Of a stretch of DNA of 64,000 nucleotides, positions 12,366-54,208 are shown piece after piece. Numbering within the stretch: the stretch's first letter is position 1; every line of letters begins with the position of its first letter. Source of the DNA: a virus; the UHGV virus genome UHGV-0198106. One strand, given 5' to 3'. The notes under the pieces are model-generated. The model saw only the letters and a program-made list of their open reading frames with translations. It searched no databases and had not been told where the DNA came from. Both the position numbers and the translations under genes were made by a program.

Positions 12366-13334
12366 ATGGGACTTTTCGGAGGCGGGGGTAGTAAAACTAC
12401 TTCCCAAATGATTCGCCCTGAATACATTCAACAGTATATTGACCAGCTTAACCAACAGATTGGTAATACTAGTTCAGGGGATTATGTTTATCGTGACAAT
12501 GTAGGGTTTAATAACAACCAGACAGAAGCTCTTAATAACTTGGCACAATCTGGCGCTCTAGGAACTCTCTCACAGCAATATATGGATGCAGCAGGTCAAG
12601 GGTTAGGATACCTAGATAATGCCTATAAAGGTTATCAGAGCCTCTCTGGACAAGGTGGGATTACTGGAGAACAGATTGGTGCTCTCGCTGGTCAACTGTA
12701 TGATGATGACGCTGTGCAAGCAGCCATTACAGCTAATAATGAACAGGTTCAACAGAATCTAGCACGTAATGCTCTTCCTCAGTTAGCTCAACAGTATGCT
12801 GGTCAGCAAGGCTCAGGTGCTCGTATGGCTAAATCTTTTGCCCAAGGTGATGCTCTGAATCAGATGCAAGGGCAAGCAACAGATATTACCAACAGTGCCT
12901 ATAACTCTGCTATCAATCAGGCTGAAAGTATCCTCTCTGGTAACAGACAGAATCAGGCAGCTGCTCTCTCAGGTCTTTCTACTATCGGTTCTAATCTTTC
13001 TAACTTAGGTCAGCAAGGTGCTAATTTGTCTCAACAGCAAATGATGAATCAATGGAATGCAGGGTTGCAGCAACAACAGCAACAACAGAATGAATATGAT
13101 AATGCCTACCAGAATGCTCAGAACGCAGCTAATTGGGGATGGCAAGATATCAACAACCAACTCGGTGCAGCAGGTGTACTTAACGGTGCTCTCGGACAAA
13201 CTACAACTACTAAAACATCTGGTGGCAAAGGTGGTTTCCTTGGTGGAGCTATGAGTGGTGCAGCAGCAGGTTCTTCCTTTGGACCTTGGGGTGCATTAGC
13301 TGGGGGCGTGATCGGTGGGTTGGCTAGTACTTAA
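12366..13334 (+). CDS. Q/N/G-rich virion protein (paralog B)
   Basis: AAAGGAG then ATG; N-terminus MGLFGGGGSKTTSQ and C-terminal GALAGGVIGGLAST parallel the upstream gene. Confidence 0.5.
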   Translation: MGLFGGGGSKTTSQMIRPEYIQQYIDQLNQQIGNTSSGDYVYRDNVGFNNNQTEALNNLAQSGALGTLSQQYMDAAGQGLGYLDNAYKGYQSLSGQGGITGEQIGALAGQLYDDDAVQAAITANNEQVQQNLARNALPQLAQQYAGQQGSGARMAKSFAQGDALNQMQGQATDITNSAYNSAINQAESILSGNRQNQAAALSGLSTIGSNLSNLGQQGANLSQQQMMNQWNAGLQQQQQQQNEYDNAYQNAQNAANWGWQDINNQLGAAGVLNGALGQTTTTKTSGGKGGFLGGAMSGAAAGSSFGPWGALAGGVIGGLAST

Positions 13335-13347
13335 TTAGGAGACAAAT

Positions 13348-14997
13348 ATGCAACAGACAACTTACGCTCAGGTCAGAAGTCGTGACCCGAGAAATACTTT
13401 CTATGGTGTTAATCCGGGAGCGGCTTCGGCCTCTCCTTATATGGCGAGACCTACTCAGACAGCAGATATTTCTATGTATCAACGACCTGCTATACCTGCT
13501 GGACTTTCTTCTCTTGTAGGTCAGACTTCAGTCGACTATCAGAATATGTTGAATCCTGTTCAGAGTAACGGGCTTCCTTCTGATATTCCGAATGATGTAC
13601 AACCTCAAGCACAACAGGCTGTAACTCTTCCTGAGTTTGAGAACCAAGAAACCATGCAAGCTGCTGGACTTTCTCCTTCTTCTATTCCTCAAGAATCAGA
13701 ACCTCTTCCGGTAACGCCTCCTACTAAACCGCTAGAAGCTGGTCCTATGGAGTTTACTCCTTCTCAGGTGGAACAGGCACAAGGTGTGATTAACACTCTT
13801 GCTCAAGGACAAGACACTGGTGATGGAATGGCTGCTGCTACTCGTGCTAAAGATCAAGAGCGTGTTAACAATGATATCTTGCAAGTTGCGAAAGCTAAAG
13901 ACCCTTCAGAAGCTTGGAACAAGCTACAGAAAGAGCCATTCTATCAGAACTCTAGTTTCTATACAGGTTTGATGGGTGTTGGTCTTTCAATCATGTCAGG
14001 TAAGTCTCCTATCGAAGCTTTCCAGATTGGTCAAGGTATGGCTAACCAAGACGAGACTAAGAAGCAACTGGAAGCTAACCGTGATGCTTTGATTGAACAA
14101 GGCTTCTCTCAAGACTCAATCGCAGCTGCTATTGCTAACGGAGACCCATCACTGCTGAAGATGAAAGCTGTAGACCCTGCTCAGAAAGAAGCATTGTATG
14201 CTGCTCGTGAAGAACGTCAGAATGCTGAATGGGATAGACGTCAACAGATTCAAGAGCAGACTATGCGTGAGCGTGCTGATGAGACTCGTCGTGCCGCTGA
14301 AGAAAGAGCTAACATGAACTTTGAACGTCAGAAAGAGTTGATTGGCTTCCGTGATAAGGTTAAGGCTGAACGTGCTGAACAAGCTGCTCAGAGTTTTAAC
14401 TTTAACCCGAAAGAAGTTCGTCTTGCTCAGAACACAGCTGAGGGTACAGTTGCTAAGCAGTGGGCAGAGAAAGGTGGTCTGTTTAACCAGTCCAACAAAG
14501 ACTTGGATTTGGCTGACAAGGCTGTTAAGGATAAAGACTATCAGACAGCTCGTTCTGCTTACATGCAGGCTATCATGAACTCCGCAAGGGCTGAAATTGG
14601 TGCTACTCGTTCTCTTACCGAAGAAGACTTGGGGCACTTTGCAGAAGACCCATCAATCTTCATTCGTGTTGGCAACAAGTTTGCACTGAAGTCTGGATGG
14701 CGTCCTACTGATGCTGCTCTTTCTTATGCTCGTAAGCAAGCTAACGTTGGTCACACCTCTGCAATGAAAGGTGTTGCTGATGCTAAGAAAGCGACAATTG
14801 AAGCTTACATCGGTTCTGGTATGGATAAGAAGAGAGCTACTGCATTGGTTAACCGTGCAATTCCTTCTGGTGGTTTCTATGACCCTCTAGGTGTTTTCTC
14901 TGAGCAAGCGGAAGAATCTGTTGGGGGTGCAGCAACCAACCCTAAGCTTAATGGTGCTTTATCAGCTGTCGAAGACACTAGCTGGTTCACGCAATAA
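13348..14997 (+). CDS. virion protein, function unknown
   Basis: 549 aa; TTAGGAG upstream; Pro/Gln-rich N-terminal part and charged helical C-terminal part. Confidence 0.5.
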   Translation: MQQTTYAQVRSRDPRNTFYGVNPGAASASPYMARPTQTADISMYQRPAIPAGLSSLVGQTSVDYQNMLNPVQSNGLPSDIPNDVQPQAQQAVTLPEFENQETMQAAGLSPSSIPQESEPLPVTPPTKPLEAGPMEFTPSQVEQAQGVINTLAQGQDTGDGMAAATRAKDQERVNNDILQVAKAKDPSEAWNKLQKEPFYQNSSFYTGLMGVGLSIMSGKSPIEAFQIGQGMANQDETKKQLEANRDALIEQGFSQDSIAAAIANGDPSLLKMKAVDPAQKEALYAAREERQNAEWDRRQQIQEQTMRERADETRRAAEERANMNFERQKELIGFRDKVKAERAEQAAQSFNFNPKEVRLAQNTAEGTVAKQWAEKGGLFNQSNKDLDLADKAVKDKDYQTARSAYMQAIMNSARAEIGATRSLTEEDLGHFAEDPSIFIRVGNKFALKSGWRPTDAALSYARKQANVGHTSAMKGVADAKKATIEAYIGSGMDKKRATALVNRAIPSGGFYDPLGVFSEQAEESVGGAATNPKLNGALSAVEDTSWFTQ

Positions 14998-18000: not shown

Positions 18001-19372
18001 TTCAGATGCTAAGGCTGCTGTTGAGAATGAACGTAAAACTCTAGAGGCTATTGCAGCTCAGAAGAGTGAGATTGAGAAGATGATGGAAGGTTTACCTAAA
18101 CCTGTTCGTGAGGCTCAGGAATCTCGTACATTGAAACAGTTGGCTGCTCACCACGATAAGAACTCTCCAGTTCCTCCAGAGAAGTTCCGTAGTTACATTG
18201 AACGTATCCATAACGCCGAGTCAGATTACCTTGATCGTCAGCGTCGTTTAACTGATGCAGAGGAAGATGCTCGTCAGGCTAAGTGGAACAGGATGTATGA
18301 GCAAGCGGAAGAAATGAACCGTAAGTTTGATGTGGACAAGAGAGTTAAGCGCAGTGAAGAGCTTAAAGCGGCCCAAGAGCGTGAGAATGATCTTATGGCA
18401 GTACAACGTCAACGTGATGATATTCATCGCCGCCTGATGCGTACTATGGAAGATAAGGGCATATCTAGAGAGGATGCTGAAGCATTTGCTGGTTCCTATA
18501 TGGATAACCGTTATGCACTTCTTGAGAAGCCTATGACTCCGACTGAGCATCAGAATGCTCGTTCTCGTATCGAGGCTGATGTTGAGAAGTTTGCTAAGAA
18601 GTACGAATCAATGACTCCTATCGAGAAAGAGATTGTTAAGGTTACTGGAGATACTGAAGGTAAGCTTGATAACTTGGATGCGGATACTAGGAAGGCTGTT
18701 GAGGAGGCTCAGAAGGTTGACTCTGATATTAAGAAACTGCAAGAGGAAGAGTTGGAGATGGAGAAGGTTCGTTCTGCTCTGCCTGACGATGAAAGATCTC
18801 AAGCAAGTTCCGATATCTTGGAAAGTATCAAACAACAGGAAGAAGCCTTTGCTGATAAAGCAGAGAAAGCTTTCTTAAATGGGAAGAGCTTAGATGAGTT
18901 AGTCAGTGTGGCTGAAGTTTTAGACAGGGTTCATGGTGCTGACAAGGCTGGTAACAACCGTCGCTTTGTACGTGCATTGCAGACTGCTGCTGAAAACAAG
19001 AAGAAGTATGGTGATAATCCAGTAGCTTGGTTTAGTGCTGATGATTATTCTGCCATTGCTAAACTTGGTGCTTCTTCCGCAGGTGGTAACAAATCCAGAG
19101 CACTGGAGAAGATCTTTGGTTCTACAGCTGAACAGGCTAAGAGTAAGTTGCTTGGCAGGGATGATGTAGCGAAGATGAGACGCGTGATTGAAGAGAACCC
19201 TGATATTAAGATTCCTTCTTACAAGACAACGAATCGTACTGAGTACTTACAGTTCTTGGAGAAGTTTAATGACGAAGGGAAGCCGAAGATTAAACGTGGC
19301 TCATTGTCAGAGAAGCTTGAACGCAGTAAGCGTCAATCGAGACTCCGTGTAAGAGTTCGACCTAAGGAGTGA
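15065..19372 (+). CDS. large alpha-helical virion protein (internal/ejection-type candidate)
   Basis: Track ORF 15020..19372 trimmed to ATG 15065, which follows AAGGAG at 15054-15059; 1,435 aa, highly charged Ala/Glu/Lys/Arg-rich coiled-coil-type sequence. Confidence 0.55.
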   Translation: MANIKPWEEASKAPAYLNASPERQAQMREQYKAAGGSIPEEQPVAQPQQEERGAIGEFAQGVSNALQSGGANISANLARGIGGLVEIGEDLTGAQTGYGKRMQENAQNLLKERMDKIEDGIGKSAGQYAGVVADIGLTVANPLAAAAIIAGRETGRAYADQTPKEGEDKSVLDAALVGGANYAAQRILPGAVGTAESALGRIGQNVASNAVAGAKGGALVGAAEVQNKYGDDNDLAKTLEGVIEEGAMGAAFGGAVGGVHGLISRPDSAVFKNTPEYAKTDIAADDELIRSAKNIDELKEAYSKAETANAASALNLLDENGFRITDAVAVDSPAAQRILNTDQARAEKAASVQKEHSNIPGLNPLASPAKTRGKAFADNEHNQKQAVAMKDAMADYTKDNTKALTDVLDNLDRELTSLRASGDFTGSPIDIKNRTQADRDFIDAYKTFYNEANRFKAREGEDFNNFVEKATELQKMADNVSPEMKKAIGGLKKLKGMPEGFNPIQDAYTLNNTAKFMSNQDRGWTSLTDDGFREASSPSLVMNTLGAAKYALNRFSSQRARSQRVKQQESNSEAIRSLARGDLEVARAKSTADEARAKMEEEPVVDDIKFKTQNDVETEPVREPSSSTVTEENLPSSAPQETPLTARDLVAQRRAVKQAEQRRAQEEAAQAPEPTVEEPTVKAEPLPARAPKAPKEAVQDVKPASGVERLAAMSSAARQATKDRAERFARSLYSKAAKAKATAENFLAYKGDPKELMRRIRQEDNAINTERHEEMARNQLASQQGIATAKNNTVRTNFAEWVKERGLPEDIATKALRAEEKGLGGNVTNLDSLKRRAERLYQKQREDEFDRLYQQALEENKAFDRKDAPKLVDQKKELQSEIDALIDSEPLRPAQKDAMRKLMNDFVDGKFKSSEKAGREEALEVGQMKDIWDGFINTYNREVNAFNKANKNSQYEAFAKHIQAREERLATLKNKAQARSDAKAAVENERKTLEAIAAQKSEIEKMMEGLPKPVREAQESRTLKQLAAHHDKNSPVPPEKFRSYIERIHNAESDYLDRQRRLTDAEEDARQAKWNRMYEQAEEMNRKFDVDKRVKRSEELKAAQERENDLMAVQRQRDDIHRRLMRTMEDKGISREDAEAFAGSYMDNRYALLEKPMTPTEHQNARSRIEADVEKFAKKYESMTPIEKEIVKVTGDTEGKLDNLDADTRKAVEEAQKVDSDIKKLQEEELEMEKVRSALPDDERSQASSDILESIKQQEEAFADKAEKAFLNGKSLDELVSVAEVLDRVHGADKAGNNRRFVRALQTAAENKKKYGDNPVAWFSADDYSAIAKLGASSAGGNKSRALEKIFGSTAEQAKSKLLGRDDVAKMRRVIEENPDIKIPSYKTTNRTEYLQFLEKFNDEGKPKIKRGSLSEKLERSKRQSRLRVRVRPKE

Positions 19373-19380
19373 TAAAAGAA

Positions 19381-19420
19381 AAGCCCTCAAGGAGAAATCC
19401 AAGAGGGCTTTATTTGTTTC
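19381..19420 (+). terminator. rho-independent terminator at end of virion module
   Basis: AAGCCCTC...GAGGGCTT stem followed by TATTTGTTTC; lies between convergent plus and minus blocks. Confidence 0.65.
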
Positions 19421-49631: not shown

Positions 49632-49928
49632 TCACTCCTTACCGGTTGTTTTTACTGAGCCACCACACCACAACGCTGTGTCAATCACAACATTGTCTGG
49701 CGTAGATTTCTCTTCGTTGATAGACGGGTTAGCATTAGAGCAGGTTGCTCCGTTCCAGCGCATATCAATTTCACCAGAAGGAACCTTCTCACCCTTATGC
49801 CAGCGAGAAACACAAACACCTTCCACTGCTACTGCACACCATCCATCAGGACGGCTCTGTACGCAGCCTGTAAGGACCACACAGACAAGGAAGATACAGA
49901 TTAAGGATATTACACCACCCCAACTCAT
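49632..49928 (-). CDS. Cys-rich lipoprotein (paralog 1)
   Basis: Signal peptide with lipobox LTGC; RPDGWCAVAVEGVCVSRWHKGEKVPSGEIDM... paralogous to the 57573..57902 product. Confidence 0.55.
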   Translation of the reverse strand: MSWGGVISLICIFLVCVVLTGCVQSRPDGWCAVAVEGVCVSRWHKGEKVPSGEIDMRWNGATCSNANPSINEEKSTPDNVVIDTALWCGGSVKTTGKE

Positions 49929-49940
49929 AACTACCTCATT

Positions 49941-50456
49941 CTATTTAGTTAACCAAAAACCTTTCGGCTTTTTAACAACACCAAGAATCCTACATCTCTT
50001 ATGGACAGCCGAATCACTAACACTCAGTAACCTCCCTACTACATACACGGGGTAAATGTCTATTAAAGACTGAAGAGATTCTTTTGTTATTTCAAACCGT
50101 CTGCTATCTAATTTGGCACAAAGCTGTGAGCAAAACCTTTGGTTGCTATTCTCTGAAACAAGGTAAATCTCTCCACAAAAAGAACATAACCTTTCTTCCA
50201 TGACAGCCCCATGATGGTGCCTGCTATGCTCCTCATAAGTCATGATTTCTAAATTAGATGGTTCGTTGTTTAACTTATTCTCATCCTTGTGATGAACCAC
50301 TAGGTCAGAGTTCAGTTCGACACCGTAGAAATTTTGAGCAACATATCTATGAACATACACCTTTCCAGCTTTATTGGCCATAGGGTGTGTTGGTTGGTAC
50401 ACATACAAATAACCAACACCTTTATCAACAACTGCTTTACTTAGATCTAGCTTCAT
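49941..50456 (-). CDS. HNH homing endonuclease
   Basis: HNH_3 motif VHHKDENKLNNEPSNLEIMTYEEH plus C-terminal Cys cluster. Confidence 0.7.
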   Translation of the reverse strand: MKLDLSKAVVDKGVGYLYVYQPTHPMANKAGKVYVHRYVAQNFYGVELNSDLVVHHKDENKLNNEPSNLEIMTYEEHSRHHHGAVMEERLCSFCGEIYLVSENSNQRFCSQLCAKLDSRRFEITKESLQSLIDIYPVYVVGRLLSVSDSAVHKRCRILGVVKKPKGFWLTK

Positions 50457-50464
50457 AATACCTC

Positions 50465-50568
50465 AAGAGCTCTTAGCGAGGGTGACAGGACTCGAACCTG
50501 CATACTCCATTTACTTCTTTAACGACCGCTTAGAAGGCGGGGAAGATACACCCTCACTAAGAGCTCTC
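50465..50568 (-). other. structured element: 20-bp inverted repeat enclosing tRNA-like T-arm and anticodon-like hairpin
   Basis: Arms aagagctcttagcgagggtg / caccctcactaagagctctc; on the minus strand GCAGGTTCGAGTCCTGT (T-arm-like) and CCGC-CTTCTAA-GCGG (UCU anticodon-like loop); no canonical D-arm, so not called as tRNA. Confidence 0.3.
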
Positions 50569-50576
50569 GTTAATCC

Positions 50577-50828
50577 TCAAGCACAAGCAGGGAGAGTGAT
50601 GATTTTATACTGACCTTCAAACTCTCCAAACAAACCCAAGAACGTAGGGCTATATGTGCCAGTACAAACAAACTCATCAAAGAGTTCATTGTACGAGGGC
50701 TTAATCTTCCAAGCCCACACATAGCCCATCTTATCAATCGCAATGTGACGAGTGTTCAGAGGAACAGTCATCATCACATCATTAACTGCGATCACTTTAG
50801 TTATTGGTGCAGCTTGGAAGTTTTTCAT
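50577..50828 (-). CDS. hypothetical protein
   Basis: Track ORF 50577..50861 trimmed to ATG 50828 (MKNFQ...) with GGAAAA upstream. Confidence 0.4.
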   Translation of the reverse strand: MKNFQAAPITKVIAVNDVMMTVPLNTRHIAIDKMGYVWAWKIKPSYNELFDEFVCTGTYSPTFLGLFGEFEGQYKIITLPACA

Positions 50829-50830
50829 GA

Positions 50831-51103
50831 TTAGTTTTCCCATTTTCCTAGATATAGACAATATATTCTACCACCGTCCGGATATGTTTTGGTATGAGCT
50901 TCAGCTAAAGAGGCACATGCATAGTAAGAAAGTTCTTGTGAGCTTCTTTTTACGGAGAATAGCATATTATCTGCTGTATGTGGCTCTGACCTGAAACCTC
51001 CGTACCAAAACCCAGAACTTTCATAGTCACTTTTGTAGATACTCTCCCTTTCCTTACAGCCAAATGCAGAGATAAGACACACTAGGATTATAAGCTTTTT
51101 CAT
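50831..51103 (-). CDS. secreted protein / lipoprotein candidate
   Basis: N-terminal MKKLIILVCLISAFGC signal; start overlaps the stop of the upstream small ORF (ATGA). Confidence 0.45.
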   Translation of the reverse strand: MKKLIILVCLISAFGCKERESIYKSDYESSGFWYGGFRSEPHTADNMLFSVKRSSQELSYYACASLAEAHTKTYPDGGRIYCLYLGKWEN

Positions 51104-51320: not shown

Positions 51321-51349
51321 AAAACAACAAAGGCCACCCGAAGGCAGCC
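51321..51349 (-). terminator. rho-independent terminator
   Basis: On minus strand GGCUGCC-uucg-GGUGGCC (two G-U pairs) followed by UUUGUUGUUUU. Confidence 0.65.
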
Positions 51350-51810
51350 TTTTATTTATTAACTGTTATAGGTCCAATTGCCTTGCTTGTTACGGATGGC
51401 TGACATTGCATGAAGCCAGAAGCCTTCCAGTTTCAGAGCACCATTAGCTACTGCATCCATACGTTCAGGGCGGTTCATACGTTTGGTTGATACTTTCATA
51501 CCTATCTCTCTCTATTAGTGGAGGCATTATTGCCAGTTGATATAGCGGATGACTCTCACTATAGAGCCAATTACTCTACAAACTAGTGAAGACTCCCTAC
51601 CCCTAGAGAGTCTCCTAAATCCCAAACCAATATGTACCCCTACATATCAGAAAGTATATCGAAAATTAACAGGTTTTAGTCTAGCACCGGATGTTTGAGC
51701 AAGCTCTCCCTAGCGGTGTGGCATATGCCTGAATTAATAAGTTAATGAGGAACACCCTCACATAGCCCTCTGATAAACACAAGGGCTATAGGTTGATGTT
51801 ACTTAGTTTT

Positions 51811-54106: not shown

Positions 54107-54208
54107 CTTTGATTAGATTCTTTTATTAGCACACTGAATCAATGCACTGATAAAAGAAAAGGCGCTACCCGTTAAGATAGCGCCTCATGTTTATTCAAAT
54201 TGTCTTAC

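Follow-up and report, generated by a model that had tools for sequence, protein, structure and literature searches.

A phage RNA encoded beside an HNH endonuclease gene is probably a structurally rewired tRNA-Arg(UCU)

What is the tightly folded sequence at positions 50466–50567 of the Kuravirus stretch UHGV-0198106, where a near-perfect inverted repeat encloses a tRNA-like core beside an HNH endonuclease gene? An earlier note on this 64-kb DNA (the window, by which we mean the whole stretch analysed) had offered three readings: a degenerate or non-canonical tRNA(Arg-UCU)-like RNA, a tRNA remnant disrupted by the HNH insertion, or an RNA processing element. We examined the element, read 5' to 3' on the minus strand, together with its relatives in other phages, and found that it is a conserved, intact gene and not a remnant. 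It is probably a functional, structurally rewired tRNA-Arg(UCU) gene, carrying a processing helix, that would decode AGA.

The arms of the inverted repeat (50466–50484 and 50549–50567) measure 19 nt rather than the 20 first noted and are complementary at 18 of 19 positions around a 64-nt spacer, the sole exception forming a G.U pair in the RNA. This repeat ranks first in the window, where all others are at most 87% complementary. Read from 50567 to 50466, the minus strand consists of the leader AGAGCTCTTAGT, then GAGGGTG TAT CTTC CCCGC CTTCTAA GCGGT CGTTAAA GAAG, followed by TAAATGGAGTAT GCAGG TTCGAGT CCTGT CACCCTC and finally G CTAAGAGCTCT. The acceptor strands GAGGGTG/CACCCTC, the T arm GCAGG-TTCGAGT-CCTGT and the anticodon hairpin CCGC-CTTCTAA-GCGG with TCT at 50534–50532 are thus all present as the earlier note had described them, in a tRNA-like core of 79 nt (50477–50555, minus strand) with anticodon UCU and without a D hairpin. 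The fold of a 116-nt RNA from this region has a predicted energy of −50.1 kcal/mol, compared with −29.5 ± 3 in shuffled sequences (z = −6.9, 0 of 200). The covariance-model check that had been proposed for the element gave a tRNA match: the Rfam tRNA model RF00005 scored 30.2 bits at 50477–50555 on the minus strand (gathering score 29) over the full model, positions 1–71, and the cmscan alignment deletes the D arm (4 nt in place of 15) and inserts 20 nt in the variable region. No other Rfam family reached its threshold at the element, the rest scoring at most 17 bits with E of at least 0.72, the bacterial Y RNA (YrlA) included. The window copy has a 7-bp acceptor stem, a 5-bp anticodon stem with a 7-nt loop (U33 and a purine at 37) and a 5-bp T stem with a GTTCRANYC-type loop. 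It has no canonical D arm, that is, no local hairpin at positions 10–25 with G18 and G19 in its loop, and just 7 nt separate its acceptor and anticodon stems.

The core is widespread among phages. It occurs in at least 256 GenBank phage records (226–256 by blastn), and four pattern scans of IMG/VR, no two of which constrained the same parts of the sequence, yielded about 90 loci with 70 distinct 82-nt cores and not one insertion or deletion among the exact-pattern copies. The phages concerned include Felixounavirus (wV8, EC6), phi92-like phages, Vequintavirinae (A7_1, SSBI34, KpS8), Sugarland-like phages, Asteriusvirus jumbo phages, and Serratia and Pectobacterium phages. Among 185,579 species genomes of bacteria and archaea, one scan returned four matches, all of them contigs of metagenome-assembled genomes and three of the four with several tRNA genes, so the family is essentially phage-restricted on this evidence; a bacterial origin, for which these four contigs were the only matches, was rejected. 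Most GenBank records leave the gene unannotated, and a few label it 'tRNA', 'tRNA-OTHER', 'tRNA-Undet' or, in 7t3, 'tRNA-TERM'. In several Felix O1-like genomes (for example MK482689, MT887289, PP886228, MN850635 and OQ850288) it is overlapped by a coding sequence named 'hypothetical protein' or 'HNH endonuclease'. These overlaps and the 'tRNA-TERM' label are probable annotation errors.

Comparison of the family members showed covariation in four helices of the core. In an alignment of 59 distinct sequences that includes the window copy (A1), four helices are 94.8% paired, with a covariation score of 0.765 against 0.19 in shuffles (0 of 500) and at most 0.16 with slid partners. The acceptor stem, anticodon stem and T stem are paired in 99.3%, 95.6% and 99.0% of cells, respectively, and all three covary heavily, the anticodon stem at five of its five pairs. 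The fourth helix, P2 (columns 11–13 with 40–42), encloses the anticodon arm and has no unpaired cell in the 59 sequences: pair 11:42 is C:G throughout (59/59), 12:41 is UA in 45, AU in 9 and GC in 5, and 13:40 is CG in 48, UA in 6 and GC in 5. A fourth pair, 14:39, is present in some members, the window copy among them (CUUC/GAAG). The P2 variants were recovered by scan patterns in which those columns were unconstrained. The minimum-energy fold of the window RNA favours another partner for nucleotides 11–13, the second GAG at columns 49–51, and this pairing was rejected since it leaves 14 and 5 sequences unpaired.

Because P2 encloses the anticodon arm, the RNA is a three-way junction, in which the acceptor stem is followed by P2 with its one-sided loop CGUUAAN and the anticodon stem, then by a 12-nt strand, UAANUGGAGUAU, and the T arm. 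The window copy has the same parts, with P2 CUUC/GAAG, the UAU connector, UCU and, before the T arm, its own version of the 12-nt strand (UAAAUGGAGUAU). The earlier observation that there is no room for a D-arm is right for a D hairpin, but a long-range substitute for the D stem exists. Conservation extends to single-stranded columns: C32, U34, U35, A36 and A37 are conserved also in scan 1, whose pattern left them free, and G48 G49 A50 G51 U52 A53 U54 are invariant in 41 distinct copies retrieved with a pattern that placed no constraint there. The motif AAYUGGA lies directly 5' of the T arm; its DNA form AATTGGA is both the family consensus and the D-loop of the phiEco32 tRNA-Arg, and the window has AAATGGA. 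We infer from this resemblance of A44 A45 N46 U47 G48 G49 A50 to D-loop positions 14–20 that the segment has a tertiary role, and U54, just 5' of the T stem, could be the equivalent of Y48. Relative to canonical tRNA, the block made up of the 5' strand of the D-stem and the D-loop appears to have changed places with the block made up of the 3' strand of the D-stem and the anticodon arm. A covariance model built from the 59 sequences (R1) gives the window copy, which is one of its training sequences, 97.4 bits and full-length members 85–105 bits, as against at most 35 for canonical tRNAs and 20.8 for the canonical phiEco32-type gene.

The anticodons point to arginine. In the scan without a fixed anticodon, the 70 distinct copies carried UCU in 68 cases, CCU in one and UCG in one, all of them arginine anticodons. 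C35 and the A after GG are invariant in these 70 copies, U or G stands at position 36, and 65 copies have G or A as their discriminator. Arginine identity in bacteria depends on the set A/G73, A20, C35 and U/G36 (PMC9976931). The conserved positions of the family match this set. AGA, one of the rarest codons in E. coli, accounts for 19.5% of the arginine codons of the window phage, or 10.2 per 1000 codons. Of about 21 loci that each hold 15 or more canonical tRNAs, only L026 has a canonical Arg(TCT), and Arg(ACG) was common. The annotated tRNA region of phi92 (49–62 kb) lists no arginine tRNA, and the rewired gene there is unannotated. At locus L092 the rewired copy reads UCG and stands beside canonical UCU and ACG genes. 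Locus L048 holds a rewired tRNA-Arg(CCU) at 12999–13080 and, about 270 nt downstream at 13348–13429, a divergent rewired Arg(UCU) that scores 55.6 bits with R1; the pair adjoins canonical Arg(ACG) and Arg(CCG) genes.

A second amino-acid identity was found on the same scaffold. R1 detected a copy with anticodon UAU (isoleucine, AUA) at L092 5506–5585, and a dedicated scan with a pairing filter brought this sister family of the same architecture to 33 distinct sequences, including those at L097, L112, L136, L137 and L165. Its P2 covaries (CCC/GGG, CGG/CCG, CTC/GAG, CTG/CAG, CCA/TGG and others), all 33 sequences have A73, the linker reads (A/U)GAAA and UAAYUGG-UNACAU precedes the T arm. A73, A35, U36, A37 and A38 belong to the bacterial isoleucine identity set (PMC9976931). 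One scaffold with two amino-acid identities and the matching elements argues that these RNAs are decoding tRNAs and against a decoy directed at one enzyme.

Family members differ in what lies outside the acceptor stem. Of the 70 distinct copies, 47 encode N-CCA, and in the 40 distinct members analysed of this class the leader and trailer pair at chance level (4.1 of 12). Another 20 distinct members lack CCA, and 12–13 of them (14 in the enlarged set) have a 12–13-bp extension of the acceptor stem. Among the 14 extended members, each of positions −1 to −13 is paired in 12–14 and positions −5 to −12 in all 14, with up to six pair types at a position; the length is constant, with A:U at −12 in 14/14 and decay of pairing past −13. 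The trailer begins with GCUA in nine of the 14, the window copy included, where the CCA class has GCCA. Between the window and Bas93, compensated changes occur in both the extension and the acceptor stem, and the Bas94 extension is imperfect, with three mismatches. That members standing between protein genes have a helix of constant length, about 20 bp, suggests processing by a double-strand-specific enzyme of the RNase III type. The suggestion that the element is an RNA processing element may thus hold for the outer 12-bp leader–trailer extension; it fails for the core. Termination or attenuation is an alternative role of the extended stem, as some members have a UUUU tail.

Most members, phi92, JNE01 and many IMG/VR copies among them, sit on the same strand within tRNA clusters, and the phi92 copy (L004 1960–1992) has a consensus sigma-70-type TTGACA-17-TATAGT promoter that ends about 8 nt upstream. 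In 7t3 (L070 2384–2394) and L049 an extended −10 element, TGTGATATAAT, stands directly upstream of the gene. A −10-like box within 20 nt was found for 19 of 46 CCA members compared with 3 of 13 extended members, a difference too weak for use. In the window, the element occupies the entire gap between the 94-aa open reading frame (ORF) upstream and the HNH ORF downstream, and because the upstream ORF is on the same strand the element is probably co-transcribed with it.

We then compared the site with those of related phages. The window is about 94.5% identical to ES17 and FH3, and the region around the lipoprotein gene is syntenic with phiEco32, Bas92, Bas93, Bas94 and FH3. Upstream of that gene, phiEco32 and many relatives carry a canonical tRNA-Arg(TCT), their only tRNA. 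At the same site Bas94 has the window-type element alone, without an HNH gene; Bas93 and FH3 have a 5' fragment of the canonical tRNA (the acceptor strand and the D arm, complete or in part), followed by a 149-aa HNH gene and the element; and in Bas92 another canonical tRNA-Arg is accompanied by the 3' half of the old gene and by an HNH gene on the opposite strand. The rewired gene thus takes the place of the canonical tRNA-Arg in the window, Bas93, Bas94 and FH3. HNH insertions have a hot spot at the tRNA-Arg site of kuraviruses, and the window element is an intact alternative allele, not debris. True tRNA-Arg remnants, namely the 5' fragments of Bas93 and FH3 and the 3' half in Bas92, look different, which argues that the element is not one of them. 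The canonical fragments lie at L003 2085–2115 (Bas93) and L067 1046–1068 (FH3), as 5' acceptor and D-arm pieces upstream of the 149-aa HNH gene, and at L002 1553–1600 (Bas92, 3' half of the old tRNA-Arg); HC-25922 (L068 1596–1780) has two tRNA 3' halves past the rewired gene.

The HNH gene of the window encodes a protein with an HNH_3 domain (PF13392, 47.2 bits, cut-off 24.8). Its closest relatives are proteins of Salmonella phages SSBI34 and 7t3 (52–54% identity), and full-length homologs with 42–60% identity were found at L045, L049, L069 (SSBI34), L070 (7t3) and L091, that of L069 reaching 68% over the N-terminal half. All five homologs start about 20–29 nt downstream of the same tRNA gene. 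The Bas92-type HNH gene is found 19 nt downstream of the rewired gene at L031 and L057, and the 149-aa type lies upstream of it in Bas93 and FH3. Overall, one of the three HNH types occurs within 400 nt, always on the same strand, at 16 of 96 loci, and none does at the other 80. The 171-aa type is sporadic at a conserved site, being absent from Bas94 and phiEco32 and present in the window. A duplicated ribosome-binding site (RBS) and start motif, TGAGGTATTATG before the HNH gene (50454–50465) and TGAGGTAGTTATG before the lipoprotein gene (49929–49945), marks the boundaries of the HNH insertion. From this arrangement the adjacent HNH genes look like free-standing homing endonucleases with the conserved gene as their landing site, and we infer that they use or travel with the rewired tRNA gene, a linkage that would explain its spread across unrelated phage groups. 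In Bas93 and FH3 most of the canonical tRNA-Arg has given way to a cassette of HNH gene and rewired tRNA gene; the latter would restore the function there and lack contiguous D-arm sequence. A group I intron, or a tRNA split across the HNH gene, was rejected: no intron model matched, and the family is intact without HNH.

If the element is a tRNA, the following course can be proposed. The leader–trailer helix would direct excision from the polycistronic transcript, by an RNase III-type cut followed by RNase P and 3' trimming, and a host enzyme would then add CCA. The GG motif would contact the T-loop and the molecule would keep its L-shape. The A after GG would act as A20 and, with C35, U36 and G73, would allow the host arginyl-tRNA synthetase (ArgRS) to charge the RNA. 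The tRNA would decode AGA, and the rewired gene would substitute, inside an mRNA operon, for the canonical tRNA-Arg(UCU) of the relatives.

Several observations weigh against a tRNA function. The RF00005 score of the window copy exceeds the threshold by just 1.2 bits, and ARAGORN calls no tRNA in the 64-kb window; it is likewise silent at the element in Bas93, Bas94, FH3, HC-25922 and 7t3 and is therefore not a usable detector here. It does report the copies at L037, L048 and L093, as 'tRNA-Arg' of 91–98 nt. A C.U mismatch tops the anticodon stem of the window copy, and pair 15:31 is non-standard in 13 of 59 members. In single-sequence folding of the window RNA the pair probability of P2 is about 2%; the family structure (−46.0 kcal/mol) and the predicted minimum-energy fold (−45.8 kcal/mol) are equally stable. 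CCA is not encoded in the window copy, and a 19-bp helix encloses its acceptor end, which means that its maturation would require several of the steps proposed above. A canonical tRNA-Arg(UCU) is also present at L026, L044 and L092, and the co-occurrence of canonical and rewired UCU genes at L026 and L044 hints at a non-redundant role. Some conserved columns were fixed by the search patterns, and their invariance leans on cross-checks among the differently constrained scans; exact-pattern retrieval also under-samples divergent members.

The same data were weighed against three other explanations. The RNA, at least in its closed-stem form without CCA, might be an uncharged tRNA mimic that serves as decoy or regulator for an anticodon nuclease, a tRNA-directed defence effector, ArgRS or a modification enzyme. 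The subclass of the window would suit such a role, as it lacks CCA and has its 3' end closed off by a covarying helix whose length, about 20 bp, is conserved, and so would the pairing of rewired and canonical UCU genes at L026 and L044. Phage tRNAs are moreover known to counter the tRNA-cleaving defences PARIS, retron Eco7 and Septu, according to three papers (PMC11464382, PMC11555353, PMC13096335). A mimic is nevertheless unlikely, because the 47 members with N-CCA offer a free end without leader–trailer pairing, the anticodons vary solely within arginine and complement the canonical set at L092 and L048, the gene replaces the sole tRNA of kuraviruses, and a scaffold that also bears an isoleucine anticodon with A73 fits general decoding better than a decoy for one nuclease. 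A cis-acting mRNA signal, either a tRNA-shaped RNase P or RNase III site or a termination or attenuation hairpin between ORFs, with the excised RNA being functionless, would account for an element that fills a whole intergenic gap between same-strand ORFs, the RBS of the HNH gene beginning 2 nt past the stem. Many extended stems are also terminator-like, with a U-rich end (TTTTG/TTTTA) that faces an A-rich leader. Such a signal has no need for an invariant arginine anticodon loop, C35, the GGA motif or an encoded CCA, and most members lie in tRNA clusters, some with a promoter of their own. In the window, no promoter-like or terminator-like site was called at 50466–50567, and instead of a GC-rich hairpin with a direct U tract the element has the tail CUCUUG (CUCUUGAGG), without UUUU. 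We consider this explanation improbable.

Least probable by far is a decaying tRNA-Arg pseudogene left by HNH insertion, which the earlier note had also suggested, or a DNA-level site for homing or recombination. Real tRNA fragments do lie near the HNH hot spot of kuraviruses, and HNH genes of three types adjoin the element at 16 of 96 loci. Against this, the unit is intact and of constant length in 70 distinct copies without insertions or deletions, compensatory changes are found in four helices and in the extension, most loci (80 of 96) have none of these HNH types nearby, and Bas94 has the element without an HNH gene; the covariation largely refutes decay. Arm sequences that differ between phages while pairing is kept point to an RNA structure or hairpin and not to a protein recognition sequence. 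The suggestion of a non-canonical tRNA(Arg-UCU)-like RNA is the one borne out, by a conserved family with four covarying helices, arginine-only anticodons and CCA in most members, and a rewired, functional tRNA-Arg(UCU) is accordingly the reading that we prefer.

The preferred reading was compared with known systems. The canonical phage tRNA-Arg(UCU) genes of phiEco32 (NC_010324 66354–66427) and T4 share with the rewired family the YUUCUAA loop type, the 7-bp acceptor stem, the 5-bp T stem and the TTCGANT T-loop, and the phiEco32 gene occupies the same Kuravirus site. Unlike them, the rewired family has no D hairpin; D-stem-like strands flank the anticodon arm, GG follows that arm, and the 'variable region' spans 23 nt. 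Mitochondrial tRNAs without a D arm (mammalian mt-tRNA-Ser(AGY), nematode mt-tRNA-Ser(UCU)) also lack the D hairpin and read AGN-type codons. These are flexible in shape, with degenerate T arms and a short connector, and lack the elbow formed by GG and the T-loop (PMC7609411). The rewired family differs from this mitochondrial type in its canonical T-loop UUCGAGU, conserved GG, long-range D-stem substitute and phage or bacterial setting. Metagenome mining has revealed non-canonical bacterial and phage tRNAs with 8/4 or 9/3 acceptor branches, the allo-tRNAs (PMC5389517). Both groups are unusual cloverleaf variants in phage tRNA clusters, but allo-tRNAs keep the D arm and alter the acceptor/T-stem split, whereas the rewired family keeps 7/5 and alters the D region. 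The permuted tRNA genes of Cyanidioschyzon merolae, which are circular permutations restored to normal tRNA by processing, likewise have a non-canonical order of tRNA segments; in the rewired family, whose 5' and 3' ends lie where they do in any tRNA, the altered connectivity would persist in the mature RNA.

For excision, mascRNA/menRNA, plant mitochondrial t-elements and tRNA punctuation offer parallels, in which a tRNA-shaped module within a longer transcript could be released by RNase P and a 3' nuclease, a route that is plausible for the window copy. To our knowledge, none of them conserves a specific anticodon or identity set; the rewired family, unlike such processing elements, conserves both. 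The T4/T6 enzyme SegB, which belongs to the GIY-YIG type, resembles the window HNH in being encoded by a small gene beside phage tRNA genes with presence/absence polymorphism in syntenic phages; unlike SegB, the genes beside the rewired tRNA, which fall into three types or more, encode HNH_3 proteins. With its place in the tRNA clusters of T-even phages, SegB sets a precedent for such linkage between endonuclease and tRNA genes (PMC13096335).

The architecture was not described in the literature searched, which comprised full texts including reviews of non-canonical tRNAs, with subscription-only papers outside the search. The candidate DNAVirus_2961 of a 2023 catalogue of viral structured RNAs overlaps some tRNA-Arg calls (PMC10690425), and the Sf14 paper lists an Arg-TCT tRNA from tRNAscan-SE that may be canonical or rewired. 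More tentatively than for the window gene itself, and at somewhat below an even chance, we propose that the family is a phage-specific class of tRNAs, not described before, that have a rewired core and are active in translation. They would serve codons rare in E. coli, with the anticodons UCU, CCU and UCG for Arg and UAU for Ile, and would be spread by homing endonucleases. The rewired core may have been selected for escape from host defence nucleases directed at tRNA, or from endonucleases that cut canonical tRNA genes.

If these RNAs are charged and used by the ribosome, bacterial translation would accept a tRNA with a different connectivity of the D-arm core, which would bear on the real requirements of ArgRS, EF-Tu, RNase P, modification enzymes and the ribosome and would provide a natural scaffold for orthogonal tRNA design. 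As the gene is mostly unannotated, studies of phage tRNAs and codon usage may undercount decoders of AGA and possibly AUA, and the annotation gap spans Felix O1-like, phi92-like, rV5-like, Sugarland-like and jumbo coliphages. Its recurrent association with HNH genes makes it possible to test whether homing endonucleases move a tRNA gene from one phage family to another. The parts of the element and its neighbouring genes are listed in Table 1.

Table 1. Positions of the parts of the putative rewired tRNA-Arg gene and of neighbouring genes in the window
Feature	Position	Strand	Remarks
5' leader arm of extended stem, RNA 5'-AGAGCUCUUAGU-3'	50556..50567	-	Pairs with 3' trailer; within inverted repeat
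Acceptor stem 5' strand GAGGGUG, columns 1-7	50549..50555	-	1-7:72-78 99.3% paired (59 sequences); 7/7 pairs change on both sides
Connector U8 A9 U10	50546..50548	-	Invariant in alignment A1; left free by scan patterns 1, 3 and 4
Helix P2 5' strand CUUC, columns 11-14, D-stem substitute	50542..50545	-	Covariation; CUUC/GAAG of the window gives 4 bp
Anticodon arm, stem columns 15-19/27-31, loop CUUCUAA	50525..50541	-	C.U at 15:31, then CCGC/GCGG; UCU at 50534-50532
3' bulge/linker CGUUAAA, columns 32-38, between anticodon stem and P2	50518..50524	-	C32, U34, U35, A36 and A37 conserved
Helix P2 3' strand GAAG, columns 39-42	50514..50517	-	Covariation with 5' strand
12-nt single-stranded segment UAAAUGGAGUAU, columns 43-54	50502..50513	-	D-loop-like motif A-A-N-U-G-G-A
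T arm GCAGG-UUCGAGU-CCUGU, columns 55-71, canonical T-loop	50485..50501	-	99% paired; 4/5 pairs change on both sides; aligns to RF00005 T arm
Acceptor stem 3' strand CACCCUC, columns 72-78	50478..50484	-	Covariation
Discriminator G (50477) and trailer CUAAGAGCUCU	50466..50477	-	Trailer in place of encoded CCA, pairs with leader
HNH endonuclease gene, 171 aa	49941..50456	-	RBS GAGG 50461-50464; start 21 nt past tRNA core; Pfam HNH_3
Upstream ORF, 94 aa, homolog of phi32_108	50577..50861	-	Stop 9 nt before leader arm
Phage_lipoprotein gene	49632..49928	-	Pfam 118.5 bits; conserved downstream neighbour of kuravirus tRNA-Arg site

Two terminator-like hairpins with T-rich tails (51329–51352 and 51588–51615, minus strand) lie upstream of the operon of the element and may mark the start of its transcription unit; the element region holds six terminator-like sites, compared with 1.9 in shuffles. 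Two other long, imperfect inverted repeats with short or no spacers were seen elsewhere in the window, at 19371–19420 (23 nt, 74%) and 54118–54158 (20 nt, 80%), and the former resembles a terminator hairpin, with GCCCTCAAGGA...TCCAAGAGGGC followed by TTTATTTGTTT.

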